Shown: positions 39,117 to 59,467, counted from the stretch's first letter. The stretch: DNA of 64,000 nt from Myxococcota bacterium (GCA_041389425.1 JAWKRX010000003.1:6597-70596), one strand, 5' to 3'. The notes: generated from the sequence alone by a model not told the origin. Translations and numbers: made by a program.

Positions 39117-40312
39117 GGGCGGGGGCCGCCGAGCCCCCCCTCCGCCTCGGCGAAGGCCGCATCAGCGGCCTGCTCGGCGTCTTCCTCGGCACACTCTCGA
39201 TTCTCGCCGTCCTCTGCTTCCACTTCCCCGAATGGCTGACGACGCCCGAGCTGCGCGCGGCGTATCCGGTCGGGGCGCTGCGCCAGGTGCTGCTCGCGGG
39301 CATGCTGCTCGCCGCGCTCTTCGGGGCGCTCTCGCTCCTGCTCTCCCCGTCTTCGCGCCTCGGCTTCGCGGGCATCGCGCTCGCGCTCGCGGCCGAATGG
39401 ATGGGCGGGGCGCACGTCGAGGTCGACGCCTTCGACGCGCCTTTCGTCTCGTTCGGATTCGACTGGCTGGTGCTCGCGCTGCTCGCGAACTCGCTCGTCT
39501 TCGTCTTCATCGAGAGGCTCTGGCCGCTGCGGCCCTCGCAGCCGACGCTCCGGCGCGAATGGCGCCTCGATCTCGCCTACTACGCCTTCAATCACGTCAC
39601 GGTCGGCATCGTGCTGCTGACGACGACCTTCTTCTCCGAGACGCTCTTCGGCTGGGCGGTCCACGACGGCCTGCAGACGCTCGTCCGCGCGCAGCCCCTC
39701 CCCCTGCAGATCGTGGAGGTGCTCTTCGTCGCGGATCTGACGCAGTACGCGGGCCACCGGCTGATGCACGAGACGCCCTGGCTCTGGCGCTTCCACGCCG
39801 TCCACCACTGCCCCGAGGAGATGGACTGGCTCGCCGGCTCGCGCATGCATTTCGCCGAGGTGCTCCTCATCCGCTCGCTCGTGATCACGCCGATCTATCT
39901 GATGGGCTTCGCGGAGGCGGCGGTGAACGCCTACGTCGTCTGGGTCGGCATCCAGAGCGTGCTGATCCATTCGAATGTGCGGATCCGCTTCGGCTGGCTC
40001 GAGCACGTCTTCGTGACGCCCCATTTCCATCATTGGCATCACGCGGCCGACGCCGAGGCGATCGACCGCAACTACGCCGCGAGCCTCCCGATCCTGGACC
40101 GGCTCTTCGGGACGTACGCCTCGCCGCGCGATCGCTGGCCGGAACGTTATGGCGTCGTCGGGAAGCCGCTTCCGCAGGGCTTCTTCGGGCAGCTGCTCTA
40201 TCCGTTCATGAAAGGACGGGCGGGGGCGTCCGCTCCGCCCCGCCCTCAATCGAGTACGAGCACGCCGTCCTCGATCGGCCCGCGCCGCAGCATCTTCCGA
40301 TCCCGGGCGTAG
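39113..40312 (+). CDS. Fatty-acid hydroxylase / sterol-desaturase-superfamily membrane di-iron enzyme
   Basis: Three His boxes (HRLMH, HAVHH, HHWHH) after several TM helices. The ATG overlaps the SnoaL stop (ATGA at 39113-39116). The 3' end overlaps the convergent BVMO gene by 67 nt. Confidence 0.85.
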   Translation: MRAGAAEPPLRLGEGRISGLLGVFLGTLSILAVLCFHFPEWLTTPELRAAYPVGALRQVLLAGMLLAALFGALSLLLSPSSRLGFAGIALALAAEWMGGAHVEVDAFDAPFVSFGFDWLVLALLANSLVFVFIERLWPLRPSQPTLRREWRLDLAYYAFNHVTVGIVLLTTTFFSETLFGWAVHDGLQTLVRAQPLPLQIVEVLFVADLTQYAGHRLMHETPWLWRFHAVHHCPEEMDWLAGSRMHFAEVLLIRSLVITPIYLMGFAEAAVNAYVVWVGIQSVLIHSNVRIRFGWLEHVFVTPHFHHWHHAADAEAIDRNYAASLPILDRLFGTYASPRDRWPERYGVVGKPLPQGFFGQLLYPFMKGRAGASAPPRPQSSTSTPSSIGPRRSIFRSRA

Positions 40313-41727
40313 TCCTGGGTGTTGAGCCAGGGCTCGCGATCGCCCTGCTTCGGGAAGAGATGCATCGCGCGCTGCATGTAGCCGGGCGTGAAGCCGTCGA
40401 TCCACGGCCGCGTCGGCATGGCGCGATCTTCCGGGCGAAGGCGCGGGGTCGCGCGGCGGGCGCCGCGCCGGTCCATCGTCTCGAGCACGCGGCAGACCCA
40501 TTCCGCCGTCAGGTCCGCGCGCAGGGTCCAGGAGGCGTTGATGTAGCCGAAGGTCTGGACGAGGTTCGGCACGTCCGAGTACATCATGCCCTTGTAGGTG
40601 AGGGTCTCGGCGAAGTCGACTTTGCGGCCGTCGACCTCGAACTCGGCGCCGCCGAGGACCTCGAGCTCGAGGCCGGTGGCGCTGACGACGATGTCGGCTT
40701 CGATCCGCTGGCCGGATTCGAGCTCGATGCCCGAAGGCACGAAGCGCGCGATCCGGTCGGTGGCGACGGACGCGCGACCCTCGCGGATCGCGACGAAGAG
40801 ATCGGCGTCCGGGACGAGGCAGAGGCGCTGATCCCAGGGGTCGTAGCGCGGCGTGAAATGCTTCTCGACGTCGTAGTCGGGGCCGAGCTGCTTGCGCACC
40901 TCGGCGAGCAGATGGGCGCGCACGCGCTCGGGATGCTCGCGGGTCTGGCGGTAGATCCAGCGCTGGACGAGCACGTTCTTCGCGCGCACGAGGCGATAGG
41001 CGAGGGCGTCGGGGAGCAGGCGCCGCAGCCAGACGGCGATGCGGTCGACCGCCGGCAGCGACGCGACCCAGGTCGGGGAGCGCTGGATCATCGTGACGAG
41101 GGCGGCGGTCTGCGCGAGGGCGGGGACGAGGGTGACCGCGGTCGCCCCGCTGCCGATCACGGCGACGCGGCGGCCGGCATGCTCGAGCTCTTCGGGCCAG
41201 AACTGCGGATGGACGATGGGGCCGCGGAAATCCGCCATGCCCTCGAATTGCGGCGCATGGCCCCGGTCGTAGCGGTAGTAGCCGCTGCACATCGAGAGCA
41301 TTCGCGCGCGCAGCGTCGCCGCGCGGGGCGGGGCGGCGGGATCCGCCTGGGCGACGTCGACCTCGAGGGTCCAGCAGGCCGCTTCGCTCGACCAGCGCGC
41401 GCGGCGCAGGCGATGGCCGAAGCGGATGTGGCGCTCGATGTCGTGGTCGCGGGCGGCCTGGCGGACGTAGGCGCGGATCGAGGGGCCATCGGCGATCGAT
41501 TCGCGGGCGCGCCAGGGCGCGAAGGCGTAGCCGAGGGTGTGCATGTCGCTGTCGGAGCGGATGCCGGGATAGCGGAAGAGGTCCCAGGTTCCGCCGATCG
41601 CCTGGCGGGTCTCGAGGATCGCGTAGGTCTTCGCCGGGCAGCGCGCCGCCAGATGGCAGGCCGCGCCGATGCCCGAGAGGCCGGCGCCCACGATGACGAC
41701 GTCGAAGATTTCCTCGTCCGGGCTCAT
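40246..41727 (-). CDS. Type I Baeyer-Villiger / flavin-containing monooxygenase (EthA-like)
   Basis: The 493-aa C-terminal part of a 1479-aa artefactual ORF. It has VVIVGAGLSGIG (FAD), the BVMO fingerprint FRGPIVHPQFWP (FxGxxxHxxxWP), and VAVIGSGATAV (NADPH). Confidence 0.9.
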   Translation of the reverse strand: MSPDEEIFDVVIVGAGLSGIGAACHLAARCPAKTYAILETRQAIGGTWDLFRYPGIRSDSDMHTLGYAFAPWRARESIADGPSIRAYVRQAARDHDIERHIRFGHRLRRARWSSEAACWTLEVDVAQADPAAPPRAATLRARMLSMCSGYYRYDRGHAPQFEGMADFRGPIVHPQFWPEELEHAGRRVAVIGSGATAVTLVPALAQTAALVTMIQRSPTWVASLPAVDRIAVWLRRLLPDALAYRLVRAKNVLVQRWIYRQTREHPERVRAHLLAEVRKQLGPDYDVEKHFTPRYDPWDQRLCLVPDADLFVAIREGRASVATDRIARFVPSGIELESGQRIEADIVVSATGLELEVLGGAEFEVDGRKVDFAETLTYKGMMYSDVPNLVQTFGYINASWTLRADLTAEWVCRVLETMDRRGARRATPRLRPEDRAMPTRPWIDGFTPGYMQRAMHLFPKQGDREPWLNTQDYARDRKMLRRGPIEDGVLVLD

Positions 41728-41892
41728 GATCGGCTCCGAAGCAGCGCCGCACGGCGCGGGCGGTCTGCGGCGCGCCCACGATACCCGAGGCCTGCGCCGG
41801 AAGGAGCACGCCGCGCGTGGCTTCCAGTCGCAATCCGGGAGGGGCGCGGCGCGTTCGTCGGCTACGCTGGCGACGCTCGCAGGAGGACGCGC

Positions 41893-43350
41893 ATGGTGGC
41901 CGTGACCCAGACGATCGAGCTGACCCCCGAGATCCGGATGGCCCAGGCCCGGACCTACGAGGAATGGCGCGCGGCCGCCGAGGCCGAAGACGAGCAGACC
42001 GGCGCCGCGCGCTGGAAGGCGAAGGACGAGAGCCGCCGCTACGACTACAAAGTGATCCGCCGCCGGCTCGAGGAGCTGCGCGAGGTGCGCGCCTCGGGCG
42101 ATCCGCATCGCCTGCTCTTCTATCTGAACGAAGGCATCCACGGCAATACCGGCGGCATGGGCTCCTCGGCGCTCTACCGGCGTGCGCGTTTCGGCACGAA
42201 GGATCTCGTCACGACCTACTCCCGCGAGCTCGCCGGCGCGATCGAGCAGCTCGCCGCGCAGCCCGACGAGGAGATCTCGTTCACCGAGAAGCGGAAGTTC
42301 TTCCGCCGGGCGAGCCATTGTTTCGGCCGCACCGCGATGATGTTCTCGGGCGGCGGCATCCTCGGCTTCTTCCACGTCGGCGTCGCGCGGGCGCTGCTCG
42401 AGCAGGGCCTGATGCCGAACGTGCTCTCGGGCTCGAGCGCGGGGGCGATGGTCGCCGCGATCCTCGGAACCCAGAGCCCGGACGAGCTGCGCGAGATGCT
42501 GCAGGCGCGCACGCTCCACGAAGCCTTCGAAGGCCTGTTCGAGGCGAGCATCGAGCCGACGCGCAGGCGCCGCCGGCTCGGCGTCGCAGAGCTGCGCAGC
42601 TTCGTCGAGAGCCGCATCCCGGACCTCACCTTCCAGGAGGCCTTCGAGAAGACGGGGCGCCGGATCAACATCTCCGTCTCGCCCCGCGAGCTGCATCAGC
42701 AGCCGCGGCTGCTGAACGCGATCACGTCGCCGACGGTCTTCATCCGCGAGGCAGTCATGGCGTCGTGTGCGATCCCGGGGATCTTTCCGCCGGTGACGCT
42801 CGCGGCGCGCGGCCGGACCGGCGAGCGCCAGCCCTACGTCGCCTCGCGCCAATGGGTCGACGGCTCGGTGACCAATGATCTGCCGGCGCGCCAGCTCTCG
42901 CGGCTCTACGGCGTCAACCATTTCATCACGAGCCAGGTCAACCCGATCATCCTCTGGACCCTCCGCGATACCAGCGCGGAAGACACGCTCTTCGCGAAGC
43001 TCTGGGACATCTCGACCCAGGCCGCCCGCCAATCGGTCCGCGCGACCTATCCGCTCAGCATGAAGCTCACCGAGCGCGCCTATCCGCTGAACCTCTTCGT
43101 GCGCATGGCCTACGGCGTCGCGACCCAGGACTACACCGCCGACATCAACATCCTGCCGCGCCGCCGCGCCTGGAATCCGGCGAAGCTGCTCTCGGCGCTC
43201 TCCTCCCACGAGACCGAGTTCCTGATCGCCGAGGGCGAGGCGTCGACCTGGCCGCGCATCGAACGCATCCGCAACTGCACGCGCGTCAGCCGCGCCCTCG
43301 ACGCCGTGCTCGCGCGCCTCGACGGCCAGCCGATCCCGGCGCGGGCCTGA
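41893..43350 (+). CDS. Patatin-like phospholipase with an N-terminal DUF3336-type extension
   Basis: ATG after AGGAGG. FSGGGILGFFHVG (oxyanion), GSSAG (Ser nucleophile) and WVDGSVTNDLP (Asp) motifs. Confidence 0.9.
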   Translation: MVAVTQTIELTPEIRMAQARTYEEWRAAAEAEDEQTGAARWKAKDESRRYDYKVIRRRLEELREVRASGDPHRLLFYLNEGIHGNTGGMGSSALYRRARFGTKDLVTTYSRELAGAIEQLAAQPDEEISFTEKRKFFRRASHCFGRTAMMFSGGGILGFFHVGVARALLEQGLMPNVLSGSSAGAMVAAILGTQSPDELREMLQARTLHEAFEGLFEASIEPTRRRRRLGVAELRSFVESRIPDLTFQEAFEKTGRRINISVSPRELHQQPRLLNAITSPTVFIREAVMASCAIPGIFPPVTLAARGRTGERQPYVASRQWVDGSVTNDLPARQLSRLYGVNHFITSQVNPIILWTLRDTSAEDTLFAKLWDISTQAARQSVRATYPLSMKLTERAYPLNLFVRMAYGVATQDYTADINILPRRRAWNPAKLLSALSSHETEFLIAEGEASTWPRIERIRNCTRVSRALDAVLARLDGQPIPARA

Positions 43351-43386
43351 ATCGCCCCCGCCCCCGGCCCCGAGGTCATCGTCCCG

Positions 43387-44412
43387 ATGGCGGAGGAGCC
43401 CACGTCCGAAACCGCGTCGCCGCCGGCGCATGCATCCGGAGCCCCGCCGATGTCGATCCGACCGCCCCAACCCGAGACCCCCGAGCCCGGCGCCTTCGCC
43501 GTGCAGCGCGCGAAGGTCGACGGCGATCTCGAGCTCGCCTTCGTCCGCGAGGGCGTCGGCGGCCATCCGCTGCTGCTGGTCCACGGCTACCCCGAGACGA
43601 AGCGCATCTGGTGGCGCAACATCCGGCCGCTCGTCGCCGCGGGCTACGAGGTCATCGTCCCCGACCTGCGCGGCTACGGCGACTCGGATCTCTCCGAGGG
43701 CGACGCCTACGATCTCGTTCTCTATTCGCGCGACCTGAAGACCCTCGTCCACGACGTCCTCGGCCACGAACGCATCGGCGCGATCGCGGGCGACGTCGGT
43801 GGCGTCGTCATCTGCGACATGGCGAATCGCTTCCCCGGCCTGATCGAGCGGATGATCTTCTTCAACACCGTCCCGCCGACCGATTTCGCGAATCCCGACT
43901 GGTACGCCGAGCGCGGCCTCTCGCTGATGCCGCTGCCGGACGGCCCGACCGGCGACTACCGGATTCGCCAGGGGCGCGATCCCGAAGCGCTGCTCGCCGA
44001 GCTCGATACCCCCGAGCGCCGCCGCCGCTACCTGCGCGATTTCTACGAGCACCGGCTCTGGGCCTCGCCGGGCGCGTTCAGCGACGCCGAGATCGACTTC
44101 ATGGCCGAGCCCTTCCTCGATGCGCGAAAGCTCGCCGCGTCCTGGGCGCCCTATCAGCTGCAATACGGCCGGAAGATGTCGGAGATGCCGATGCTGGGGC
44201 CCGTCGAGGTCCCGACGCTCGTGCTCTACGGCCCCGAGGACCACGTGGTTCCGCCGGATTTCGTGAAGCGCTGCGAGGCCGGCTTCCGCGACCGCATCGG
44301 GCCCGTCATCGTGCCGGAAGCCGGGCATTTCCTGCAGTGGGAGCGAGCGGACGTCCTGAACGGCCTCGCGCGCGTCTTCTTCGAGGAATGCAAGCGCGGC
44401 GCCCGGCGCTGA
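43387..44412 (+). CDS. Alpha/beta hydrolase, epoxide-hydrolase-like
   Basis: LLLVHGYPETKRIWW motif and Asp-type elbow AGDVGG. 341 aa; the start may be the downstream Met. Confidence 0.85.
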   Translation: MAEEPTSETASPPAHASGAPPMSIRPPQPETPEPGAFAVQRAKVDGDLELAFVREGVGGHPLLLVHGYPETKRIWWRNIRPLVAAGYEVIVPDLRGYGDSDLSEGDAYDLVLYSRDLKTLVHDVLGHERIGAIAGDVGGVVICDMANRFPGLIERMIFFNTVPPTDFANPDWYAERGLSLMPLPDGPTGDYRIRQGRDPEALLAELDTPERRRRYLRDFYEHRLWASPGAFSDAEIDFMAEPFLDARKLAASWAPYQLQYGRKMSEMPMLGPVEVPTLVLYGPEDHVVPPDFVKRCEAGFRDRIGPVIVPEAGHFLQWERADVLNGLARVFFEECKRGARR

Positions 44413-44422
44413 AGAGGCGGCG

Positions 44423-45157
44423 ATGGGAGCGCGACGGCGAACGAGCGCGTTCCGCTTCCCCGAAGCCGCCGCCGCCGCCGCAGCCGTATTTGCGTTCGTC
44501 GCGATCGCGGTCGGCTGCGCTTCGCCCGCCACGCAGTCCGGGGCGACGGAGCCGGTCCTGTTCGAGGGGTTCGCGGTGCGCGTTCCGGTCGGTCCGGACT
44601 GGGTCCGCCAGCGCGAGGGCTCGACGCTCGTGGTCGGGCGCGCCCTGGGCGAGGCGTGGTCCCACGGCATGGTCGTCGAGATCACGGTTCCGCCGCCGCT
44701 TCCCGATCCGGTCCATCCCTACGATCTGCTGGCCTCGGCGCGGGTGAACGCCGCGAACCTCGCGCGCGAAGCGCAGATCGATCTCGTCGACCACGGCGAG
44801 CGGCTCGTCGAGCACCAGGGCATGGACTGCGTCGATTTCTACTTCATGCTCGCGCGCCGCCATGAAGTCGACGGCGAGACGCGCCATTCGGCCCAGCTCG
44901 GCCGGGGTCTCGTCTGCCGCCATCCCCGCGATGCCCGCCGCATCGTCAACCTGCGATACGCCGTCGAGAATCACGACGGGCGTCTGATGGCCGTCGACCA
45001 GGCTCTCGGCGACGCCTTCCTCGATTCGATCCGGCCGCAGCCCGTCGCCGATCACGACGCCTCTGCGGCGCCGGCCCGACCGGAGACGAGCGATTCGACG
45101 AGCGACCAGAGGGCCTCCCGATCGGCCGCCGCCTCGCGTGTCCAGGGGAGCAGGTGA
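44423..45157 (+). CDS. Probable lipoprotein (unknown function)
   Basis: Signal/lipobox AAVFAFVAIAVGC. The last ~35 codons overlap the convergent SDR gene, so the true 3' end is uncertain. Confidence 0.55.
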   Translation: MGARRRTSAFRFPEAAAAAAAVFAFVAIAVGCASPATQSGATEPVLFEGFAVRVPVGPDWVRQREGSTLVVGRALGEAWSHGMVVEITVPPPLPDPVHPYDLLASARVNAANLAREAQIDLVDHGERLVEHQGMDCVDFYFMLARRHEVDGETRHSAQLGRGLVCRHPRDARRIVNLRYAVENHDGRLMAVDQALGDAFLDSIRPQPVADHDASAAPARPETSDSTSDQRASRSAAASRVQGSR

Positions 45158-46611
45158 GGCGTGCGTCGACGCCGATCGAAGTAGAAGCCGCCTGCCTCGA
45201 TCCGCGCACGGGGAGCGATGGCGAGCCAGACGACCGTATCGGCGCCTTCCGCCGGAGTGCGCAGGATCGCGCGGGTGGCCCGATGAAAGCGCGGAAGAGC
45301 CTCTGCGACGGCCGGCGTATCGGCCCAGCCCGGATGCATCGAGACACAAAGAGGCCCGCGATCACCGGACTTCGCGATGGCCTCGGCCCAGCGCGCGGCG
45401 AGCACGACCTGCATCCGCTTGGTCTGGGCGTAGGCGAGCACGCCGTCGTAGCGGCGCTCGCGCCACTGCGGATCGGATGGATCGAGTCGCTGGGTGTACA
45501 TGCCGCCGGAGGAGACGAAGACGACCCGCGCGTCGTCCGAGCGCGCGAGCGCAGGGAGCAGCCGACGGGTCAGCACATGCGGGCCGGCCACGTGGGTCGC
45601 GAAGGTCAGCTCGAGACCATCCTCTGTCTGCTCGCGCCGAGCGGGCAGCACGCCCGCATTGTGGACGAGCCAGTCCAGACGCTCTCCCGCGAGTCGATCG
45701 GCGAAGCTCCGGACGTCTTCGAGGCGCGAGAGATCCACCCGCTCGAGCACGATCCGCGGATTGCCCGTCCGGGCGCGGATCGCGTCGCGCGCGGCGAGGC
45801 CGCGCTCTTCGTTCCGGCAGGCGAGGACGACTTCGGCCCCGCGTTCGGCGAGAGCCAGCGCCGCCTCGAAGCCGATGCCCGAGTTCGCACCGGTCACGAC
45901 CGCGCGGCGCCCGGCGAGATCGCGGTCGAGATCCTCCGGCGTGAAGCCGACGGCATGTCGGCGGTAGCCCGTGCGATCGAAGGAGAGCACGATCGTCGGG
46001 TCGAGCACGCGCGAGAGTGCCTCGGCTCCGAGCTGCTCGAGGGGCGAGGGCGCGGAAGCCGGAGGGCAGGGGCGAGCGCCGGGCGCGAGCGCGGCCAGGA
46101 CCCCGTCGATCGGCGCGAGATCGCCCGCGACGCGATCCGCATGCCGGAACATGACGCGGCCATCGCGCCCGACGACGAGGACACCGCCGAGCTGAAACGG
46201 ATCGCCCTGCACGGGACCCTGCCGGAATCCGCCCTGCCAGGCCCGGTAGGCATTCGCGAAGAGGCGCGGCGAGGCGAGCTCTTTGCGGCCCCGTCGGAGG
46301 CCGGCGGCATGATACGAGCGGAGCGTCGGATCGATCAGCACGGCGATCCCGGGATCGAGCGCCAGATCCTCGCGAAAGGCGCGCGCGAAGGATTCGCTGC
46401 CATTGCCGATGATCGCGAGCGATGCGCCCGCGGACCGGATCTCGTTCCATCGGTCACGCAACTGCGTGACTTGCTCCCGGCAGAACAGTCAACCGAAGTG
46501 GCGGAGCCAGGCGAGGACGACCGGACCGTCCTGCCAGAGCGTCTCGAGCACGACCGCTCCGCCCTCGGCCCGTTCGACCTCCATCGATGCGAGGTTTCGA
46601 TCCACCTTCAT
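45052..46611 (-). CDS. Candidate selenoprotein: PRX_like2 (AhpC/TSA-type) domain with a U-x-x-C motif fused to a short-chain dehydrogenase/reductase (in-frame TGA at 46491-46489)
   Basis: ATG at 46611 follows GGAGAGG and overlaps the CFA-synthase stop as ATGA. It opens MKVDRNLASMEVERAEGGAVVLETLWQDGPVVLAWLRHFG-[TGA]-LFCREQVTQLRDRWNEIRSAG..., in frame with the 469-aa ORF 45052..46461. The SDR part has TGANSGIG and YAQTK. The conservative alternative is the SDR-containing ORF alone (45052..46461, TTG start), which I rate at confidence about 0.85. Confidence 0.55.
46453..46470 (-). promoter_or_regulatory. Candidate bacterial SECIS-like hairpin (GUCACGC-AGUU-GCGUGAC)
   Basis: Perfect 7-bp stem with a 4-nt loop containing GU, starting 18 nt after the in-frame UGA. 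The loop lies about 26-29 nt from the UGA. Read directly from the sequence. Confidence 0.5.
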
Positions 46612-47885
46612 GCGGCTTCCTCTCCCAGCGATGCGAACGATCCGAACGCCTCCGCGAGCGAGCCGCGCCGCGCGGCCGCCTGATCGAAGACCAGCTGGGC
46701 GGCGAGGTTCGCGCGCTCGAGAAACGCGCCCTCGCAGTAGGCGAGATAGAAATCCCAGGTCCGGAAGAAGCGCTCGTCCATGCCGAGGGCCGCGATCTCG
46801 CCGCGCCGGGCACGGAATCGCGCACGCCAGCGCCGCAGCGTCTCGGCGTAGTGGGGGGTGATGTCTTCGTAGTCCGAGAGGCGCAGGCGCGTCGAGGCGA
46901 GCGCCTGCGAAATGGCGCCGAGGCCGACCAGCTGGCCGCCGGGAAAGATGTAGCGCTTGATGAAGTCGACGCTGCGGATCGAGGGCTCCCAGGCATGCTC
47001 CGGGACGAGGATCGCCTGGATCGCCATCGTTCCGTCCGGCGCGAGCCGATCGGCGCAGACCTCGAAGAAGCGGGGCAGATGCCGATGCCCGACGGCCTCG
47101 ATCATCTCGATCGACACGAGGCGGTCGTAGCTGCCCGAGAGATCGCGATAGTCCTCGAGCAGCACCTCGACGCGGTCCGCGAGACCCGCCCGCGCCACCC
47201 GCTCGCTCGCGAGGGCGTGCTGCTCGCGGGAGATCGTCGTGGTCCGGACGCGGCAGCCGCGGGTCCGGGCCGCGTGCAGCGCGAAGCCGCCCCAGCCGCT
47301 GCCGATCTCGAGCAGCCGGTGGTCGGCGCGCAGCGCGAGCTTGCGGCAGAGGCGTTCGTACTTCGCCGCCTGCGCGGCCTCGAGCGAGTCTTCGATCCGA
47401 TCGAAGATCGCCGAGGAATAGGTCAGGCTCTCGTCGAGAAAGGTCGCGAAGAATTCGTTGCCGAGGTCGTAGTGGGCCTCGATGTTGCGGCGGCTGCCCG
47501 AGCGGTCGTTGTCGCGCAGGCGATGGAAGAGCCGCAGCCCCGGTCGCATCCAGGCGCTTCCGCGCTCGAGCGCGTCGAAGGCGCCGGCGTTGCGGACGAG
47601 CAGGCGGATCACGGCGACGAGATCGTCCGAGCGCCACCAGCCGTTCATGTAGGCCTCGGCGCCGCCGAGCACGCCGCGGAGCGCGAGGGCGCCGAAGAGC
47701 CGCGCGTCGTCGACGACGACGGTCGCCCGCGGCCCCGGCTGCGCCCCGTGAAAGACGGAGCGGTCCGGTCCGGCCTCGAGCACGAGCTCGCCTTCCCCGA
47801 TCGCCCGCAGCGCGGATTCGACCCGGCCGCGGGCGAGCCGCGCGAGCCAGCCCGGCTGCGTCGCCGCCGTACGCGGCGGCGTCAT
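46608..47885 (-). CDS. Cyclopropane-fatty-acyl-phospholipid-synthase-family SAM-dependent enzyme (long form)
   Basis: 425 aa with NIEAHYDLGNEFF, LLEIGSGWGG and FIKRYIFPGG motifs typical of CFA synthases. Taken from the in-frame tail of a 710-aa ORF. Confidence 0.9.
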   Translation of the reverse strand: MTPPRTAATQPGWLARLARGRVESALRAIGEGELVLEAGPDRSVFHGAQPGPRATVVVDDARLFGALALRGVLGGAEAYMNGWWRSDDLVAVIRLLVRNAGAFDALERGSAWMRPGLRLFHRLRDNDRSGSRRNIEAHYDLGNEFFATFLDESLTYSSAIFDRIEDSLEAAQAAKYERLCRKLALRADHRLLEIGSGWGGFALHAARTRGCRVRTTTISREQHALASERVARAGLADRVEVLLEDYRDLSGSYDRLVSIEMIEAVGHRHLPRFFEVCADRLAPDGTMAIQAILVPEHAWEPSIRSVDFIKRYIFPGGQLVGLGAISQALASTRLRLSDYEDITPHYAETLRRWRARFRARRGEIAALGMDERFFRTWDFYLAYCEGAFLERANLAAQLVFDQAAARRGSLAEAFGSFASLGEEAA

Positions 47886-47896
47886 CACCTCGTCGC

Positions 47897-48655
47897 TCAA
47901 GCCAGGACCTCCGAATGCGGGGCAGCGCCCGGATGGGGATGGAAGCGGGCGCCGCGGCGGTGGAGCCGGAAGGCCTGCCAATAGATCGCGGCGAGCGTCT
48001 GGAGCGAGATCAAGGGAAAGCGCAGCAGCGCGCTCGCGAGGGATGCGCCGTCGATTTCGCGGCGCTCGAGCCGGAGGCGCGCATCGAAGACGCGCTCGCC
48101 GTTTTCGAAGTTCTCGATGCGGGCCTCGAGGGTCCGGCCCGGAGCCTCGAACGTGAAGCGATAGTCGTGATGCATCGGGAGGAAGGGCGAAACGTGGAAG
48201 CATTTGCGGGCGTGCGCCTCGATGCGGCCTTCGACGGCGGGGAGGACGTAGGCATGGCGCTCGTTCCAGGGCGTGTTGCGGACGTCGGCCACGACGGCGT
48301 CGAGGGCGCCGGCGGGCGAGAAGGCGTAGTGGAAGCTCACGGGATTGAAGACGTGGCCGCCCATCCGGGGCTGGGTCAACAGGCGGATCGGTCCCTCGGG
48401 CGTGCGCCCCGTCCGCTCGCGCACCAGCGCGCGCACGGCGGCGTCGAGGGAGACCGACGGATCCCCGAGATGGTCCGCTCGGCGAAAGCCCGCGAGGCGC
48501 CGTCGCTCGGCGCCCCAGAGCCAGCGGCCCGCGAAGACCCGATCGAGCTCGGCGAGATCGAGGTACAGCATGCAGAGGCGCTGGCTGAACCCGTGCTGCG
48601 GCGCGAGCCGCCGGGCGTGGTGGACGCGGCCTTCGTAGAGCGCGCTCGCCATCAT
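47897..48655 (-). CDS. DUF1365-family protein
   Basis: MMASALYEGRVHHARRLAPQHGFSQRLCMLYLDLAELD is the characteristic DUF1365 N-terminus. The ATG overlaps the upstream stop (ATGA at 48652-48655). Confidence 0.88.
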   Translation of the reverse strand: MMASALYEGRVHHARRLAPQHGFSQRLCMLYLDLAELDRVFAGRWLWGAERRRLAGFRRADHLGDPSVSLDAAVRALVRERTGRTPEGPIRLLTQPRMGGHVFNPVSFHYAFSPAGALDAVVADVRNTPWNERHAYVLPAVEGRIEAHARKCFHVSPFLPMHHDYRFTFEAPGRTLEARIENFENGERVFDARLRLERREIDGASLASALLRFPLISLQTLAAIYWQAFRLHRRGARFHPHPGAAPHSEVLA

Positions 48656-49896
48656 CCGGCCGCCTCGATCGAGCGGACCACGCGCAGGGCGCTCTGGATC
48701 CCGTCCTCGTGGAAGCCCCAGCGCCAGTAGGCGCCGGCATAATGGATGCCGCCGACGCCGTCGATCTTCCCGTGCTGGCGCTGGGCGTCGATCGCGTTGC
48801 CGTCGAGGATCGGATGCGCGTAGTCGAATTGCGCGAGGACCTGCTTCGGATCGATGCGCGCGCTGCCGTTCAGCGTGACGAGCAGGGGCAGGGCGGACGG
48901 GATGCCCTGGAGGCGGGAGAGGTCGTAGGTCACGAGCACGCCGCCGGCGCCCGGATCGCGCTGGATCCGGTAGTTCCAGCTCGCCCGGGCGGCGGGTCGG
49001 CGCGGCAGGAGCGATCGGTCGGTGTGCAGGATCGTCTCGTTGCGGCTGAAGCGGATCGCGCCGAGGATGCGGCGCTGGTCGGCGGTCGGAGCCGCGAGCA
49101 GCGAGAGGGCCGCATCCGAATGAACGGCGAGGACGACGCGGTCGAAGACGTGCTCGTGGCCGTGGACGGCGAGCTCGACGCCCCGGGCCGTGGGGCGGAG
49201 CGCGCGGACGGGCGCGCCGAGCTCGATCCTGGCGCGCATGCGGCCGGCGAGCGCATCGACATAGCTCTTCGAGCCGCCGCAGATCGTGCGCCAGCGGACG
49301 CTGCCCGCGCGGCCGAGCAGGCCGTGGTTCTCGAAGAAGCGCAGGAAGCTCGCGGCGGGCATCTCGAGCAGCTCGCCCGGCTCTGCGCTCCAGATCGCGG
49401 CGCCCATCGGCGTCAGGTACCAGTCGCGGAAGGCGTCGGAATAGCCGCCGGAATCGACGAGCTCGCGCAGCGTGCATTTCGGATCGAGGGCCCCGATCGC
49501 GCCGGGCGCCTCGCGGGCGAAGCGGAAGACCTCGCGCAACATCCGGAGGAAGGGGCCGCGGAACGATTGGGGGCGCGTCGCGAAGACGCCTCGCAGGCCG
49601 CGGCTCGACCATTCGAGGCCGCTGTGCTCGCAGGCGAGGCCGAAGCTCATCTCGGCAGGCCGCGTCTCGACGCCGAGCTCCGCGAGCAGGCGGGTCAGCT
49701 CGGGATAGGTCGTCTCGTTGTAGACGATGAAGCCCGTATCGACGGCGTGCGCCGTGCCGTGCACGACGGCTTCGACCGTATTCGCATGGCCCCCGAGACG
49801 CGGCTCGGCCTCGAAGAGCGTGACGTCGTGGCGCCGCCCGAGGCGGTCGGCGCAGACGAGCCCGGCGATGCCGGATCCGACGACGGCGATCTTCAT
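48652..49896 (-). CDS. FAD-dependent amine-oxidase/desaturase-like oxidoreductase (COG2907 type)
   Basis: MKIAVVGSGIAGL...LFEAEPRLGGHANT dinucleotide-binding motif. 414 aa. ATGA overlap with the upstream methyltransferase at 49893-49896. Confidence 0.9.
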   Translation of the reverse strand: MKIAVVGSGIAGLVCADRLGRRHDVTLFEAEPRLGGHANTVEAVVHGTAHAVDTGFIVYNETTYPELTRLLAELGVETRPAEMSFGLACEHSGLEWSSRGLRGVFATRPQSFRGPFLRMLREVFRFAREAPGAIGALDPKCTLRELVDSGGYSDAFRDWYLTPMGAAIWSAEPGELLEMPAASFLRFFENHGLLGRAGSVRWRTICGGSKSYVDALAGRMRARIELGAPVRALRPTARGVELAVHGHEHVFDRVVLAVHSDAALSLLAAPTADQRRILGAIRFSRNETILHTDRSLLPRRPAARASWNYRIQRDPGAGGVLVTYDLSRLQGIPSALPLLVTLNGSARIDPKQVLAQFDYAHPILDGNAIDAQRQHGKIDGVGGIHYAGAYWRWGFHEDGIQSALRVVRSIEAAG

Positions 49897-50933
49897 CGCC
49901 CGCATCCGCGGTGGCCCATCACGACGTGCGAGACCCACCATTCCTGCCCGCCCCGGAAGCCGAACAGCTCCGAGCAGCCGAGAAAGAAGAGCCGCCAGCG
50001 CTGGAGCCAGAGCCGCTCCTCGCCGGCACCGTAGGTGGCGCGCAGGATCGGAAGGATCGCCGGCGTCGCACGGTCGAGGTTGGCGAGCCAGGCATCGCTC
50101 GTGCGCTGGTAGTGGGTTCCGTCGACGGTGTGCCGGCGCAGGACGACGAGATCGTCCTGGAAGGCGAGCAGCCAATCGTCGGAGGGCATCATGCCGCCGG
50201 TGAAGAAATGCCGGCCCATCCAATCGCTCTCGCCCTCGGTCCCGTAGGGATAGGCCGAGCGGCGATGGGCGAAATGATGCACGAAGAGCAGGCCCTTCGG
50301 ATCGAGCCAGCGCGCGATGCGGGCGAGCAGCTCAGCGTGGTTGCGGACGTGCTCGAACATCTCGACGGAGACGATCCGATCGAAGCGCGCGCCGGGATCG
50401 AAGGCATTCACGTCCTCGGTCACGACCTCGAGGTTCGAAATGGAATCCCGCTGCGCGGCGCCGCGGATGAACTCGGCCTGGCTCTTCGAGTTCGAGACGG
50501 CGAGCACGCGGCTCTTCGGATGCCGCTTCGCGTACCAGAGCGAGAAGGAGCCCCAGCCGCAGCCCAGATCGAGCACGCGCTGGCCGTCCTCGAGGCCGGC
50601 GCGGATCGCGACGCGCTCCAGCATTTCGAGCTCGGCCTCGGCGAGCGTTCTCGTCTGCGGCCCCCAGTAGGCGCAGCTGTATTTGCGGTGGGGCCCGAGG
50701 ACCCGTTCGTAGAAGGCGGCCGGGACTTCGTAGTGCTGGCGATTCGCGGCGTCCGTCTCGAGGGCGATCGGCGAACGGCGCGCCTGCGCGAGGAAGGCCT
50801 GATGCTGCTCCATCGCGGCCTCGGCGTCGCCCGCGGCGAGCTCGCGCAGGCGTTCGCGCAGAAGCGCACGGATCCCGATCCGGACGAGTCCGTCGGGCAG
50901 CAATCCACTTTCGGCGAGGGAGATGGCGAACAT
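49893..50933 (-). CDS. CFA-synthase-family SAM-dependent methyltransferase (short form)
   Basis: 346 aa with HYEVPAAFYERVLG, VLDLGCGWGS and SVEMFEHV motifs. Confidence 0.9.
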   Translation of the reverse strand: MFAISLAESGLLPDGLVRIGIRALLRERLRELAAGDAEAAMEQHQAFLAQARRSPIALETDAANRQHYEVPAAFYERVLGPHRKYSCAYWGPQTRTLAEAELEMLERVAIRAGLEDGQRVLDLGCGWGSFSLWYAKRHPKSRVLAVSNSKSQAEFIRGAAQRDSISNLEVVTEDVNAFDPGARFDRIVSVEMFEHVRNHAELLARIARWLDPKGLLFVHHFAHRRSAYPYGTEGESDWMGRHFFTGGMMPSDDWLLAFQDDLVVLRRHTVDGTHYQRTSDAWLANLDRATPAILPILRATYGAGEERLWLQRWRLFFLGCSELFGFRGGQEWWVSHVVMGHRGCGR

Positions 50934-51013: not shown

Positions 51014-51763
51014 TCAGCGGGACTCGGCCGTGCTCGGCGGGGCGACGGGTACGCTGAGTCCCCGTGGCAGCGATTCGGCGCTTCGGCGATAGCGCAGCTT
51101 CCAGCCGCCGAAGAGCGGGCTCTCGAGGGCGACCCATTCGTCTCCCTCCACGGCGTAGGCGAGGGTGATCGCGAGATCGTCGCCTTCGATCCGATACCGC
51201 TCGACCGGAATCTCGCGCGCGCCGATCTCGACGGTGCCCCGGCCGAGCGAGCGCGTCTGGACGGCGACGTACTCGCCCGTCTGGGAGTTGAGCAGTTTCC
51301 GGCGCTTCAGGATCTCGCGCTTGTCCCAGTAGGCGAAGGTGCCGACGCATTCGTCGATGCGCTGGCTTCCGAGCCGGCTCGCCACGGCGAAGCCGCTCGG
51401 CTCGGCGCGCCCCGAGACGTGATCGGGCTTGCCGTTCTGACGGGTCGTCGACTCGATCGATTGCAGGCAGCCGCCGCGCCACTGCTCGACGTTGCGATGG
51501 TCGTAGGTGATCGTCTTGAGCCGCAGGAGCGTGAATTCGAAGGCGGCGCGGATCTCGACGCGCAGACCGTCGTCGCTCGGCTGCAGATCGAAGCGCTGGT
51601 ATCCGATCGGGCGATCGTCGAGGAAAACGTCGAAGCGCAGCTCGCGCGCGGGCTCGGGGATCGCCGCGGCTCGGGCCGGGAGCACCGCCTGGGCGACCAC
51701 CGCCGCTCCGAACGCCAGAACGAGGAGGCGGCCCGAGGCCGGGTTTCCGAATCGCGACCGCAT
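51014..51763 (-). CDS. Secreted protein of unknown function
   Basis: 249-aa tail of a longer ORF. ATG follows AAGGAG. Signal peptide is GRLLVLAFGAAVVAQAVLPARAAA. The beta-rich composition suggests a barrel or sandwich fold. Confidence 0.7.
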   Translation of the reverse strand: MRSRFGNPASGRLLVLAFGAAVVAQAVLPARAAAIPEPARELRFDVFLDDRPIGYQRFDLQPSDDGLRVEIRAAFEFTLLRLKTITYDHRNVEQWRGGCLQSIESTTRQNGKPDHVSGRAEPSGFAVASRLGSQRIDECVGTFAYWDKREILKRRKLLNSQTGEYVAVQTRSLGRGTVEIGAREIPVERYRIEGDDLAITLAYAVEGDEWVALESPLFGGWKLRYRRSAESLPRGLSVPVAPPSTAESR

Positions 51764-52679: not shown

Positions 52680-53246
52680 TCATTGATTCGGCGGGCGCGT
52701 CGCGAGCTTGCGCTGCAGGGTCCGGCGATGCATGCCGAGCTGGCGCGCCGCCTCCGAGACGTTGCCCCCGCAATCGCTGAGCACTCGCTGGATGTGCTCC
52801 CATTCGACGCGATGCAGGCTCGGGACCACCGCTCCCGGCGCGGCGGCGCCGCCGTCGCCGCCGCTGCGCGGCTCGCCCGCCCGGGACGCGAAGGCGAGCA
52901 GGATCTCGTCGGCGTCTGCGGGCTTGGTCAGGTAGTCGATCGCGCCGCGCCGAACGGCCTCGACCGCCGTCGCGATGCTCCCGTAACCCGTCAAGACGAC
53001 GCAGGCGATCGCGGGATCGAAGGCGAGGATCCGGTCGAGCAGATCGATGCCCGAGCCGTCGCCGAGGCGCAGATCGAGGACGGCACGCGCGGGATGGAAG
53101 CGCTTCAGGACCTCCGCCGTCTCCGCGAGCGACGCGGCCCCCTCGACCTGCAGGCCGCGATCGCGAAAGGCGCGGCAGAGGCGAGTGCGATAGGCGTCGT
53201 CGTCGTCGACGACGAGCAGGCGGATGGGATCCTGCTCAGGCGACAT
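52680..53246 (-). CDS. regA: RegA/PrrA/ActR-family redox response regulator
   Basis: REC domain (LLVVDDD...DLRLGDGSG...KP) plus the near-invariant RegA HTH NVSEAARQLGMHRRTLQRKL. Confidence 0.9.
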   Translation of the reverse strand: MSPEQDPIRLLVVDDDDAYRTRLCRAFRDRGLQVEGAASLAETAEVLKRFHPARAVLDLRLGDGSGIDLLDRILAFDPAIACVVLTGYGSIATAVEAVRRGAIDYLTKPADADEILLAFASRAGEPRSGGDGGAAAPGAVVPSLHRVEWEHIQRVLSDCGGNVSEAARQLGMHRRTLQRKLATRPPNQ

Positions 53247-54657
53247 CGCGCCCTCCCGTCGCCGCGCGCGCTTCGGCTCGCGCCGCCGCGCCGTTCGGCG
53301 CTTCCGCGATCGGCCAGGCGACGGTCGCCGTCGTGCCCGTACCGGGCTCGGACTCGAATCGCAGCGTTCCGCCGAGGCGCTCGAGATGGAGATGGACGAC
53401 GAAGAGCCCGAGGCCCGTGCCGCGCCCCGGCGCACGCGTCGTGAAGAAGGGCTCCCCGACATGGCGCAGGGTCGCCTCGTCCATGCCGGTTCCGCGGTCG
53501 CGCACGCGCGTCACGAGCTGCTCGCCTTCGCGGCGGATCTCGACGTCGACGCTCGTGTCCGGGCGCGAAGCGTCGAGGGCATTGCGCAGGATCGGGCCGA
53601 CGACCTCGCAGAAATCGATCCGCGCGCCGGCGAAGGCTCCGGGCGCGAGCTGGACGGTGATCCGCACGCGCTCGCTCTCGCCGGCGTCGAGACCGTCGCG
53701 CAGGGCCGCCTCGAGCTCGGCCGCGGCGATCGGGAGCTCGGCTTCGGCGACCTCATGGGCGGCGCGCGCGCGCATGCGGTCGAGGATCGCGCGGCAGCGT
53801 TCGACCTCCGTGCGCAGGAGCTTGGCGTCTTCGGCGAGGCCGGAGGGCGGGGCGGCCGCATGCGCCGACTGCGCGCTGCGCTCGAGCTCCCGGGCGATCA
53901 CGGCGATCGTTCCGAGCGGCGAGCCGAGCTCGTGGGCGGCGCCGGCGGCGAGCGTCGTCAGCGAGGCGAGGCGGGCGTTGCGGGCGGCGACCTCGGTCAA
54001 ACGGCGCATCTCCTGCTCGCGCTCGCCGAGGGTCTCGATGATGCGGGTCATCACGAAGGTCATGACCGCGGCGACGACGACGACGGCGACCCACATGCCG
54101 AGGGCGTGGAGCCCGATCGACGAGCCGGGCAGCGCCGGCGCGTGCCAGAAATGCGCGGGTGTCGACCACGGAAAGACGAGCGCATAGAAGCCCGCGCAGG
54201 CGATCGCGACGGACCAGGTCGCCGCTCGGCTCCCCGTCATCGCCGCGAGCACGATCTGGATGATGTAGAGCGCGCTGAACGGGCTGTCGGGCCCGCCGCT
54301 CCAGGCGAGCAGGAGCGTGAAGAGGGCGGCGTCGAAGACGAGGATCGGGACCACGAGCCGCGCGGCCCGCGCCGGCGAGCGTGCGCGCAGCGCCATCCAG
54401 ATCCCGTTCGTCGCCGCGATCAGGGCCGGGACGAGCCAGAGCCGCTCGTAGGGCAGTGGCAGGGCGAGCCCGGCCCAGGCGATCGCGATCGCCCCGATCT
54501 GCCCCGCGGCGGACAGGAATCGCAGGGGCACCAGCCAGCGCAGCACGGCGTCGGCCCGCGACGGGACGGCCGCCGGCGGCGTCGGCGGCATCGGCGGCGT
54601 GGACGGCGAGGTCGGTCGAGGCGAAAGAGCGGCGTCGGGGACAGGGGACCGCTTCAT
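53236..54657 (-). CDS. regB: RegB/PrrB/ActS-family redox-sensing histidine kinase
   Basis: Six-TM N-terminal domain with GGPDSPF (the RegB GGxxNPF quinone-site region), H-box AAHELGSPLG and a C-terminal ATPase domain. It overlaps regA by 11 nt. The start is taken at MKRSPV. Confidence 0.88.
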   Translation of the reverse strand: MKRSPVPDAALSPRPTSPSTPPMPPTPPAAVPSRADAVLRWLVPLRFLSAAGQIGAIAIAWAGLALPLPYERLWLVPALIAATNGIWMALRARSPARAARLVVPILVFDAALFTLLLAWSGGPDSPFSALYIIQIVLAAMTGSRAATWSVAIACAGFYALVFPWSTPAHFWHAPALPGSSIGLHALGMWVAVVVVAAVMTFVMTRIIETLGEREQEMRRLTEVAARNARLASLTTLAAGAAHELGSPLGTIAVIARELERSAQSAHAAAPPSGLAEDAKLLRTEVERCRAILDRMRARAAHEVAEAELPIAAAELEAALRDGLDAGESERVRITVQLAPGAFAGARIDFCEVVGPILRNALDASRPDTSVDVEIRREGEQLVTRVRDRGTGMDEATLRHVGEPFFTTRAPGRGTGLGLFVVHLHLERLGGTLRFESEPGTGTTATVAWPIAEAPNGAAARAEARAATGGRDVA

Positions 54658-54725
54658 CGAGCGCAGGCTACTCGCCGGGCGGGAGCGCTGCAATTTCGAA
54701 GCGGAGCGCGGAGGCGCGCGCTGCT

Positions 54726-54740
54726 GCGTCAATTTGTCGC
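54726..54740. promoter_or_regulatory. RegA/RegR-box-like element (GCGTCAATTTGTCGC) in the regB-tlpA divergent intergenic region
   Basis: Matches 13 of 15 positions of my recollection of the RegR box GNGRCRTTNNGNCGC. A related TGCAATTTCGA lies at 54689-54699. Confidence 0.25.
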
Positions 54741-55532: not shown

Positions 55533-55798
55533 CGGGCGCGCGCGCGAGCGTGATCGCGGTTCGGCGAGGCGGTCTGCGCGGGCAGGTGTGCGTGCGCATC
55601 GTCGCGCTCGGACTCGTGCTCCTGCTCGGCGGCGCTTGTCGCACCGTCGAGCCCTGGGAGCGCGCGCAGCTCGCCGCCCCGCGCATGCAGCCCGAGCCCC
55701 ATCCCGCGCATGCCGCTTTCCTCGATCACGTTCGCCAGAGCCGCGAAGCCGCGACGACCGGCGACGGCTCGGGCGGAGGGGGCTGTGGTTGTTACTAG
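55529..55798 (+). CDS. DUF4266-type small lipoprotein
   Basis: Lipobox LLLGGAC, then VEPWERAQLA...M and the family-typical Gly/Cys C-terminus GGGGCGCY. The GTG overlaps the tlpA stop (GTGA at 55529-55532). Confidence 0.8.
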   Translation: MTGARASVIAVRRGGLRGQVCVRIVALGLVLLLGGACRTVEPWERAQLAAPRMQPEPHPAHAAFLDHVRQSREAATTGDGSGGGGCGCY

Positions 55799-58526: not shown

Positions 58527-58558
58527 CGCGCGGAGGCACAGCCGCCGGCGGCCGGCGC

Positions 58559-59467
58559 GTGCGGCGCTTCCGCGCCATGGGCTCGCCCTGCGAGATCCAG
58601 ATCGAGCCGGGCGCCGCGCACGGGGCCGCGCAGGACGCGCGGGCCATCGACGCCGCGCTCGCGGCGGCGATCGCCGAGGTCGAGCGGCTCGAGGCCCGTT
58701 ATTCGCGCTATCGCGACACGAGCGACCTCGCGCAGATCAATCGCGTCGCGGCCCGGGGCGGGACGCTCGAGGTGGATCCGGAGACGGCGGGTCTGCTCGA
58801 TTACGCGGCGACCTGTCACGCAGAGAGCGACGGACTCTTCGACATCACCTCGGGCATCCTGCGCCGCGCATGGCGCTTCCAGGAAGGGCGTCTGCCGGCC
58901 GCGGAGGAGGTCGAGGCGCTGCTGGGCCGCGTCGGATGGCATCGGCTCGCATGGCGATCGCCGCGGCTCGAATTCGGGACGCCCGGCCTCGAGCTCGACT
59001 TCGGCGGCATCGTCAAGGAATACGCAGCGGATCGCGTCGCCGGCCTGCTCCAGGCGGCGGGCATGCGACACGCGCTCGTGAATCTCGGGGGCGACATCCG
59101 GGCCGCCGGCCCGCGCGCGGACGGCAGCGCCTGGCAGATCGGGATCCGGGACCCGCAGCGGGCGGGCGAGGTCCTGCGGCGCGTCGCTCTGCGCGAGGGC
59201 GCGCTCTCCACGAGCGGCGACTACGAGCGCTGCATCGAGATCGACGGCGTGCGCTACGGCCACGTGCTCGATCCCCGCACCGGCTGGCCCGTTCGCTTCA
59301 TGGCCTCCGCGAGCGTGCTCGCGCCGCTCTGCGTCGTCGCCGGCAGCGCCTCGACGATCGCACTCCTGCGCGCCGAGCAGGGCCCGGCCTGGCTCGAGGC
59401 CCTCGGCCTGCCCTGCCTCTGGGTCGACGTCGAGGGGCGGCTGGGCGGATCGCTCGCCGGCGCTTGA
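58559..59467 (+). CDS. apbE: FAD:protein FMN transferase ApbE
   Basis: FRAMGSPCEIQI, SDLAQINR, FDITSG, DFGGIVKEYA and STSGDYER motifs. The start could be GTG 58559 or ATG 58577. No signal peptide is visible with either. Confidence 0.88.
   Translation: MRRFRAMGSPCEIQIEPGAAHGAAQDARAIDAALAAAIAEVERLEARYSRYRDTSDLAQINRVAARGGTLEVDPETAGLLDYAATCHAESDGLFDITSGILRRAWRFQEGRLPAAEEVEALLGRVGWHRLAWRSPRLEFGTPGLELDFGGIVKEYAADRVAGLLQAAGMRHALVNLGGDIRAAGPRADGSAWQIGIRDPQRAGEVLRRVALREGALSTSGDYERCIEIDGVRYGHVLDPRTGWPVRFMASASVLAPLCVVAGSASTIALLRAEQGPAWLEALGLPCLWVDVEGRLGGSLAGA

Follow-up and report, generated by a model that had tools for sequence, protein, structure and literature searches.

A probable selenocysteine codon in a Myxococcota gene for a peroxiredoxin-like domain fused to a short-chain dehydrogenase/reductase

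Here we describe a gene on the minus strand (45052-46611) of a 64,000-nucleotide stretch of DNA from a Myxococcota bacterium (GCA_041389425.1, JAWKRX010000003.1:6597-70596), which we call the window and whose positions are counted from its first letter. The reading frame of this gene is crossed by an in-frame TGA (46491-46489), and the comparison with its homologues indicates, with a probability that we put at roughly 0.87, that it is a genuine selenoprotein gene in which this UGA stands for selenocysteine (Sec). By sequence analysis the product has 519 residues and two modules, a PRX_like2 ('SelL-related') thioredoxin-fold domain, which holds the Sec codon as residue 41, and a short-chain dehydrogenase/reductase (SDR) of the NADP(H) type. 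Decoding would follow the standard bacterial route of Sec insertion, in which the UGA is read by Sec-tRNA(Sec) carried by SelB. SelB would be recruited by an intragenic hairpin (46470-46453) lying 18 nucleotides (nt) 3' of the UGA, a putative bacterial selenocysteine insertion sequence (bSECIS).

The frame opens at an ATG (46611-46609) sharing bases with the TGA of the upstream gene (46610-46608), an ATGA overlap read from the sequence, and a Shine-Dalgarno motif, GGGAGAGG (46626-46619, minus strand), lies 7 nt 5' of this ATG. Forty sense codons, the last of them encoding ...LAWLRHFG, precede the TGA. The frame then continues with LFCREQVTQ and runs on as LFCREQVTQLRD..., in common with a 469-residue open reading frame (ORF; 45052..46461), to the terminator TGA at 45054-45052, giving 519 codons plus the stop. 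An original prediction, made by a model from the sequence alone, had described the start, the overlap, the 40 codons, the TGA and the ORF, and all these coordinates match the sequence, as does the hairpin that it reported, GTCACGC-AGTT-GCGTGAC, with a perfect stem of 7 bp. At the position equivalent to this ATG the homologues have the N-terminus M-R/K-[VIL]-x-x-R-L. The window was also scanned for in-frame TGAs with open frames on both sides, using composition (GC content at the third and second codon positions, GC3/GC2) and an adjacent Cys as criteria. Among 384 such codons only the one studied here combined a nearby Cys with a composition that is coding-like on either side, and the scan found no further selenoprotein gene in the 64 kb.

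A protein search with the window product gave 4228 relatives, the best 120 of which were inspected for length. All but one of these 120 were called at approximately 455-480 residues, covering about 88-90% of the query; the exception (P0047) has 509 residues and reads RHFGCIFCRQ. Two gene models, P0060 and P0092, begin with 'MFCREQ', at the codon directly 3' of the suspect TGA. Homologue DNA was then compared, with one genome per species, and 23 loci matched from residue 1, most of them labelled as Myxococcota or 'Deltaproteobacteria' metagenome-assembled genomes (MAGs). A stop lies at the identical column in 23/23 of these loci, in the context RHFG-stop-[LMIV]-F-C-[RH]-E-Q and behind a conserved upstream peptide, and all 23, which were found by tblastn, have Cys at the column of Cys44. 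Counting the window, every genome-derived sequence (24/24) has TGA as this stop, never TAA or TAG, whereas the true terminators of the 23 homologous genes are 13 TGA, 6 TAG and 4 TAA.

Gene-caller bias was avoided by a codon-neutral scan of metagenomes with the degenerate pattern H-F-G-TGN-x-F-C-R-E-Q, in which the third base of the critical codon was left free. The scan yielded 120 loci, with TGA in 108, TGC in 9, TGT in 3 and TGG in none; Cys forms with divergent flanks may be undercounted, P0047 (R-Q-Q), for example, being one that would escape the pattern. The 12 metagenome Cys forms and the TGC of locus L081, a Cys-form fusion, form Sec/Cys pairs at the same column, where the original prediction had placed the TGA as the first Cys of a CxxC motif. 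This TGA recurs in 131 sequences that were assembled independently in many studies, and about 90% of the sampled family members have Sec, not Cys. In the 20 codons 5' of the search pattern no in-frame stop occurs in any of 125 distinct sequences, whereas the other two frames contain stops in 22 and 16 of them, and the entropy is 1.45 bits at codon position 3 against 1.13 at position 1 and 0.99 at position 2. Being free of stops and most variable at third positions, the peptide 5' of the TGA therefore evolves as coding sequence, and the N-terminal extension proposed for the gene is conserved across the homologues. Together with the conservation of the TGA this excludes a sequencing error, a pseudogene and a true start behind the TGA. 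The outcome that had been named as refuting a selenoprotein, namely homologues that truly begin at the position of TTG 46461, is thereby discarded, the annotated lengths of about 460 residues being a gene-calling artefact.

The family also comprises stand-alone members, which lack the SDR. For one of these, about a quarter of its best 120 relatives are full length and some three quarters truncated. The full-length proteins of alignment A3 have Cys at the Sec/Cys column in 26/27 cases and Arg in one (P0272, 184 residues, from ENA), a stand-alone protein reading RHFGRLFC. Its Arg may reflect a mutational loss or a base-call variant, as CGA is one base away from TGA. The picture of a single selenoprotein gene given at the outset thus stands as regards the identity of the Sec residue, and has to be widened to a large family with stand-alone and SDR-fused forms.

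According to published criteria (PMC13188914), a bSECIS has a loop of 3-9 nt with a G in its first two positions, a stem of 4-16 bp, 16-37 nt between the UGA and the loop, and a free energy of at most -7.5 kcal/mol. The window hairpin lies within all four limits (loop AGUU, 7 bp, 25 nt and -10.6 kcal/mol), as do 122/131 Sec forms against 3/12 Cys forms (p = 2e-7). A canonical hairpin, defined by 5 or more uninterrupted pairs in the same register, is present in 115/131 TGA forms and in 0/12 Cys forms (Fisher p = 3e-10). AGTT forms the loop in 111 of the 131 TGA forms and AGGT in 7, and the Leu codon within the loop is TTG in 111/131, although TTG makes up 7% of the Leu codons in these genes.

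Covariation was tested on an ungapped alignment of 124 distinct sequences with 500 shuffles. All seven pairs of the hairpin have changed on both sides, and 92.3% of the cells are paired, compared with 80.4 +/- 0.7% after shuffling (0/500 as high); doubly changed cells number 88, and 20.3 +/- 3.7 in the shuffles. When the 3' partner is shifted by 1-3 columns, pairing falls to 18-55%. The fourth pair is A-T in the window and in L012 (ACG with CGT) and G-C in most sequences. Stem variants are GTCGCGC/GCGCGAC (peptide VAQLRD), GCGGTGC/GCACCGC (AVQLHR), GTCGCAC/GTGCGAC (VAQLCD), GTCGCCC/GGGCGGC (VAQLGG) and GGCGG/CCGCC (AAEFRP), and some sequences change the amino acid so that the pair survives, for example R to C with GCA/TGC. 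The SECIS candidate of the original prediction is upheld by this covariation, by the bSECIS criteria and by the lack of its canonical form in Cys forms.

Most Sec forms without the canonical hairpin contain an alternative one. One type, GAGCAG-GTT-GCTCG, starts about 10 nt 3' of the UGA and is made from the R-E-Q codons, and a second is the 8-bp GTGGCCGG-GTT-CCGGTCAC. Loci with alternative hairpins form a minority of the TGA-form stand-alone loci (L088, L103, L106, L112, L152, L184, L196; and L085, L086, L199). This suggests at least three SECIS solutions inside one family.

Several observations weigh against a selenoprotein of the kind proposed here. ARAGORN and tblastn searches with the E. 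coli SelA, SelB and SelD detected no tRNA-Sec, SelA, SelB or SelD in the 64 kb of the window or around the fusion loci (window and loci about 1.1 Mb), which are a small part of each genome, so that this negative result says little. The minimum free energy (MFE) of the 81-nt region is unexceptional at 71% GC (z = -0.27); as the MFE is uninformative, it is the comparison of sequences, not thermodynamics, that supports the hairpin. Rfam gave no match to a SECIS family, at gathering scores or at permissive E-values, where there was noise only; short bacterial SECIS elements are not modelled in Rfam. The hairpin overlaps the conserved peptide V-A/T-Q-L-R-D, and its conservation is partly protein-driven. 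On the model NF040769 ('SelL-related redox protein') the whole protein scored 111.4 bits and the domain alone 115.1 bits, below the cutoff of 120, which stand-alone Sec-form relatives pass with Cys put for Sec (122-136 bits); by these scores the window protein is a near relative of NF040769 and not a member by the NCBI criterion. Regarding function, genes of the cyclopropane-fatty-acid (CFA) synthase cluster, which precede the target in the window, flank 6/48 other fusion loci and 0/56 stand-alone loci, many of the contigs being short. Finally, RSP1087, the SDR of a comparable operon, is dispensable for furan fatty acid synthesis in Rhodobacter sphaeroides (PMC7380195).

In these searches the sole match to the Sec machinery is a full-length tRNA-Sec on metagenome contig L128 (Ga0194058_10000005, 12336-12427; RF01852, 64.3 bits, gathering score 47). 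A stand-alone SelL-related gene of the TGA form (~5360-5900, minus strand) lies on this contig at a distance of 6.5 kb. The Deltaproteobacteria, taken in their former broad sense, are rich in selenoproteins (PMC5029168). In an Archangium sp. MAG (L054 4415-4976, JBKJSE010000404.1), six tRNAs form a compact array beside an SDR-only relative. One tRNA of this locus, labelled 'tRNA-SeC' by ARAGORN, was rejected: it has the ordinary length of 73 nt and the anticodon UCA, is recognized in Rfam as a generic tRNA only (60.3 bits), and may be an opal-suppressor-type tRNA.

Four other explanations were considered. If the TGA were a real stop, the gene would consist of a 40-residue leader and a separate protein of about 469 residues, begun at TTG 46461 or nearby, as might be read from the long ORF that this TTG opens and from public annotation, where nearly all homologues have 455-480 residues. 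The starts chosen by the callers vary, however, and those placed directly after the TGA bear the signature of an artefact. Moreover, the 40 upstream codons are conserved as protein in 125 distinct sequences, the Cys forms are uninterrupted ORFs across the column, and the internal stop is always TGA while genuine terminators are mixed. A shortened product would also be deprived of three beta-strands and of the CxxC nucleophile, and we regard a real stop as quite improbable. That the TGA arose by an error of sequencing or assembly, or marks a recently inactivated CxxC pseudogene, is barely conceivable. A single TGC-to-TGA change would suffice, but the recurrence of the TGA in the 131 assemblies and the purifying selection on both sides of it argue otherwise.

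Reading of the UGA as a standard amino acid outside the Sec pathway, either as Cys or Trp by a near-cognate tRNA or as Trp or Gly under a variant code, would agree with the lack of matches to the Sec machinery in the searched 64 kb of the source genome. The 73-nt tRNA with a UCA anticodon in a Myxococcota MAG points the same way, although it belongs to another organism and to a locus with an SDR-only relative. Yet TGA is the commonest true terminator of the same genes (13/23), which indicates the standard genetic code, and TGG is never found at the column. Plain read-through offers no explanation for a covarying bSECIS-type hairpin that tracks the TGA and not the Cys forms, and one family member shares its contig with a bona fide tRNA-Sec; we therefore consider such recoding improbable. 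The hairpin itself might have no decoding role and be a by-product of the preferred codons for V-A-Q-L-R-D in GC-rich genomes; these genes most often encode V, A, R and D by GTC, GCG, CGC and GAC. The unexceptional regional MFE would agree with this, and so would the Cys-form fusion L081, which keeps 6/7 stem pairs next to its TGC with an altered loop (GAG CTG). Codon preference does not account for the rare TTG in the loop, for the peptides AVQLHR, VAQLCD, VAQLGG and AAEFRP, which keep the stem through double changes, for the amino acid itself being altered to preserve a pair, or for the structure being kept in none of the 12 Cys forms, and such an origin appears very unlikely.

For the selenoprotein, which we favour, domains were assigned by Pfam on the product with Cys put in place of the TGA. 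The match to AhpC-TSA (PF00578, residues 7-117) spans the TGA, AhpC-TSA_2 (PF13911, residues 50-160) scored 51.0 bits against a gathering score of 27, which places the domain in this family, and adh_short (residues 237-369) scored 72.6 bits in the C-terminal half. The UxxC Prx-like/SDR fusion of 519 residues is thus recovered as it had been foreseen. Alignment to the prostamide/prostaglandin F synthase of humans (PGFS; PRXL2B, PDB 9us9) extends over nearly the whole first domain (E = 8.5e-10) and lays LRHFG-U-LF-C-R over LRRFG-C-VV-C-R of PGFS, matching U41 with Cys44, C44 with Cys47 and R37 with Arg40. The redox centre is U41-L-F-C44, with the conserved R37-H-F-G just before it.

The second domain has the classical SDR motifs, TGANSGIG (240-247), HNAG (317-320), S367/S368, Y394-x3-K398 and PGWADT (427-432). 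They are invariant across the family (alignment A1), and the Ser-Tyr-Lys catalytic set is intact. A Cys-Arg pair (C265-R266) follows strand beta-2 of the SDR, which we take as a sign of a preference for NADP(H). The best NCBIfam match of the SDR is PRK06197 (163.8 bits, below its cutoff), JGI labels homologues as 'SDR family member 12', and SDR-only relatives align from about residue 180-200. An AlphaFold2 (AF2) model of the Cys-form fusion reached a mean confidence (pLDDT) of 93.9 and a predicted TM-score (pTM) of 0.88. In this model a strand (30-35) leads to the active-site Cys at the N-terminus of helix 42-52, and its confidence implies a fixed arrangement of the two predicted domains. The best Foldseek matches are 3rd5 and LPOR (target-based TM-score, TMt, 0.75-0.85), and no solved structure covering both domains was found by Foldseek (query-based TM-score, TMq, at most 0.48).

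SDRs of the same DHRS12/PRK06197-like clade also occur with other N-termini: SRPBCC/Polyketide_cyc2 (START-like lipid binding) in P0121, P0130, P0143, P0167 and others, DUF2878 in P0154, and a helix-turn-helix (HTH) with a B12-binding domain, like the CarH light sensor, in P0239. Given these varied fusions, the SDR is the constant part, and the N-terminal module a variable partner related to lipid or light.

Table 1. Coordinates of the proposed selenoprotein gene's elements and of the adjoining operon genes in the window
Feature	Position	Strand	Basis
Translation start, GGGAGAGG + ATG	46609..46626	-	Read directly from sequence
Probable Sec-encoding UGA, U41 of the U-L-F-C redox motif	46489..46491	-	Conserved column; aligns with PGFS Cys44
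Cys44 codon, presumed resolving Cys of UxxC	46480..46482	-	Homologue conservation; aligns with PGFS Cys47
Putative bacterial SECIS core, 7-bp stem GUCACGC/GCGUGAC, loop AGUU	46453..46470	-	25 nt UGA to loop; covariation and criteria
PRX_like2 / AhpC-TSA_2 / SelL-related domain, residues 8-174	46090..46590	-	PF13911, PF00578, NF040769, 9us9
Helical linker and SDR N-terminal extension, residues 175-230	45922..46089	-	AF2 helices 188-226
SDR domain, residues 231-480	45172..45921	-	adh_short, PRK06197, motifs
Cyclopropane-fatty-acyl-phospholipid-synthase-like methyltransferase	46608..47900 (start approximate)	-	PF02353 CMAS, E = 2.7e-81
DUF1365 protein, UfaO family	47897..48670 (start approximate)	-	PF07103, E = 3.9e-74
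FAD amine-oxidase / phytoene-desaturase-like, UfaD-like	48652..49905 (start approximate)	-	PF01593, PF13450
Second CMAS-type S-adenosylmethionine (SAM) methyltransferase	49893..50933	-	PF02353, E = 1e-38
DUF6134 protein	51014..51700 (start approximate)	-	PF19630, E = 1.9e-38

The target is the translationally coupled last gene of an overlapping series on the minus strand, in the order DUF6134, CMAS-type methyltransferase, FAD amine-oxidase-like, DUF1365, CFA-synthase-like and target (Table 1), and the DUF6134 gene is probably the first of the operon. The CFA-synthase-like gene also lies directly 5' of the fusion in L001, L002, L003 and L009, and clustering of the neighbours of 23 loci showed no conserved context beyond the CFA-synthase cluster. 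The earlier description of the target as last gene of a lipid operon hence holds in the window; as a trait of the family it does not, the arrangement being confined to a sub-clade.

Directly 5' of the lipid operon (52680-54732, minus strand) are genes for a histidine kinase (HisKA, HATPase_c) and a Fis-type HTH response regulator, which may regulate the operon in place of the extracytoplasmic function (ECF) sigma/ChrR pair of Rhodobacter. No adjacent ECF sigma/ChrR pair was found, the kinase and the Fis-type regulator being the upstream neighbours, in a window whose remainder is not fully annotated. From downstream, a gene for a DUF3336 and patatin-like phospholipase (domains ~41935-42900, plus strand; region 39232-43350) converges on the target operon, and this neighbour is kept at 91% identity beside the closest homologue, L001. 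At ~41050-41700 (minus strand), within 40246-44685, lies a coding region for an FMO-like flavoprotein. Adjoining genes for DUF3570 and an ApbE-family flavin transferase (55710-59467, plus strand) are apparently unrelated to the selenoprotein. The only Cys-form fusion found (P0047, at L081 4995-8318) is flanked by genes for a glutathione S-transferase and a glutathione peroxidase, a peroxide-detoxification neighbourhood, with no lipid operon.

By analogy with PRXL2B, the fusion may act on lipid peroxides, a function that we propose tentatively. The selenolate of U41 would attack the O-O bond of a peroxide or endoperoxide of an oxidised lipid, C44 would resolve the intermediate to a selenenylsulfide, and a thiol reductant would restore the active site. 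The fused SDR would then use NADPH to reduce a carbonyl, either of the same lipid or of the one that results. A role on membrane fatty acids that have been modified or photo-oxidised would be in keeping with the operon setting. A more specific and, as a whole, unlikely proposal is that the fusion serves Myxococcota as a selenium-dependent enzyme of lipid repair, complete in itself. Its Sec domain would reduce the (endo/hydro)peroxides that singlet oxygen forms on furan, methylated or cyclopropanated acyl chains, the products of the co-encoded UfaD, UfaO and CFA-synthase-like enzymes, and the docked NADPH-dependent SDR would reduce the keto or aldehyde products or feed reducing equivalents to the same cleft. 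If this were true, the uncharacterised SDR slot of a widespread singlet-oxygen operon would acquire a biochemical role, and the bacterial PRX_like2 proteins, of the SelL/SelU type, a first substrate class.

Hundreds of public gene models are cut at the probable Sec codon, with loss of the catalytic residue, and the truncated proteins are named 'SDR family oxidoreductase', 'peroxiredoxin' or 'hypothetical'. The prokaryotic selenoproteome would gain a subfamily of UxxC PRX_like2 proteins and, in the Prx-like2-SDR fusion, a new architecture. The residue match to PGFS, the SDR fusion and the furan-fatty-acid-type operon of a sub-clade together provide a testable hypothesis of function for PRX_like2, hitherto without a known bacterial substrate. 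A SECIS placed in conserved coding sequence would also shape the choice of amino acids, Arg giving way to Cys or Gly with the pair kept, and would be a case of RNA structure constraining protein.

No published description of the fusion as a selenoprotein was found in the literature searched for an SDR-fused selenoprotein, 'SelL-related' proteins or Myxococcota selenoproteins. UxxC PRX_like2, NF040769 and the SDR fusion are all absent from a 2026 inventory of 119 prokaryotic selenoprotein families, and an SDR-fused selenoprotein is not mentioned in the GOS fusion survey, the deep-Sep paper or the BSepDB paper. UxxC thioredoxin-fold selenoproteins are by themselves a well-known kind, and the stand-alone bacterial form is already modelled by NCBI (NF040769). 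With NF040769/SelL (PRX_like2 cd02970, PF13911) the window protein has in common the thioredoxin-fold family and the redox motif's position. The stand-alone bacterial relatives pass NF040769 and most have TGA at the same column, whereas the window protein is fused to an SDR of about 290 residues. The motif of SelL is reportedly UxxU. The motif U-L-F-C of the window protein differs from the two Sec residues with which selenoprotein L has been described (PMC3473315); SelL and SelU are the eukaryotic Sec members of PRX_like2 (PMC3473315, PMC2398784). The closest entry in the 2026 list by conserved domain is a cd02970 'UxxS' family, which likewise has Sec first in the motif but is UxxS and single-domain, in contrast to the SDR-fused UxxC of the window; by the rule of that inventory, a different motif makes a distinct subfamily.

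The window domain can be aligned residue by residue with PRXL2B/FAM213B over L-R-[R/H]-F-G-C-x-x-C-R, with the CxxC and the Arg at -4 both in place. In PGFS, Cys44 is the nucleophile on the endoperoxide of prostaglandin H2 (PGH2), docking sets residue 44 beside the peroxide, and Arg40/Arg41 shape the site (PMC12938796). PRXL2B is eukaryotic, Cys-containing and single-domain, however, and no prostanoid-type substrate is implied for the bacterial fusion. The C-terminal 290 residues resemble the DHRS12/PRK06197-type SDRs in their classical motifs, and LPOR and 3rd5 are the closest among solved folds, although every NCBIfam match of the window SDR lies below its cutoff. The operon resembles, at the level of families, RSP1091-1087 of R. 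sphaeroides, which belongs to the sigmaE/ChrR singlet-oxygen regulon and makes furan fatty acids, UfaO being its DUF1365 protein (PMC7380195, PMC5507510). Both contain amine-oxidase-like, DUF1365 and CMAS genes with the SDR gene last. The window operon differs in its additional DUF6134 and second methyltransferase genes and in having a two-component system instead of ECF sigma/ChrR. RSP1087 is a plain SDR of 245 residues without a Prx-like domain, whereas the SDR of the window is fused to one.

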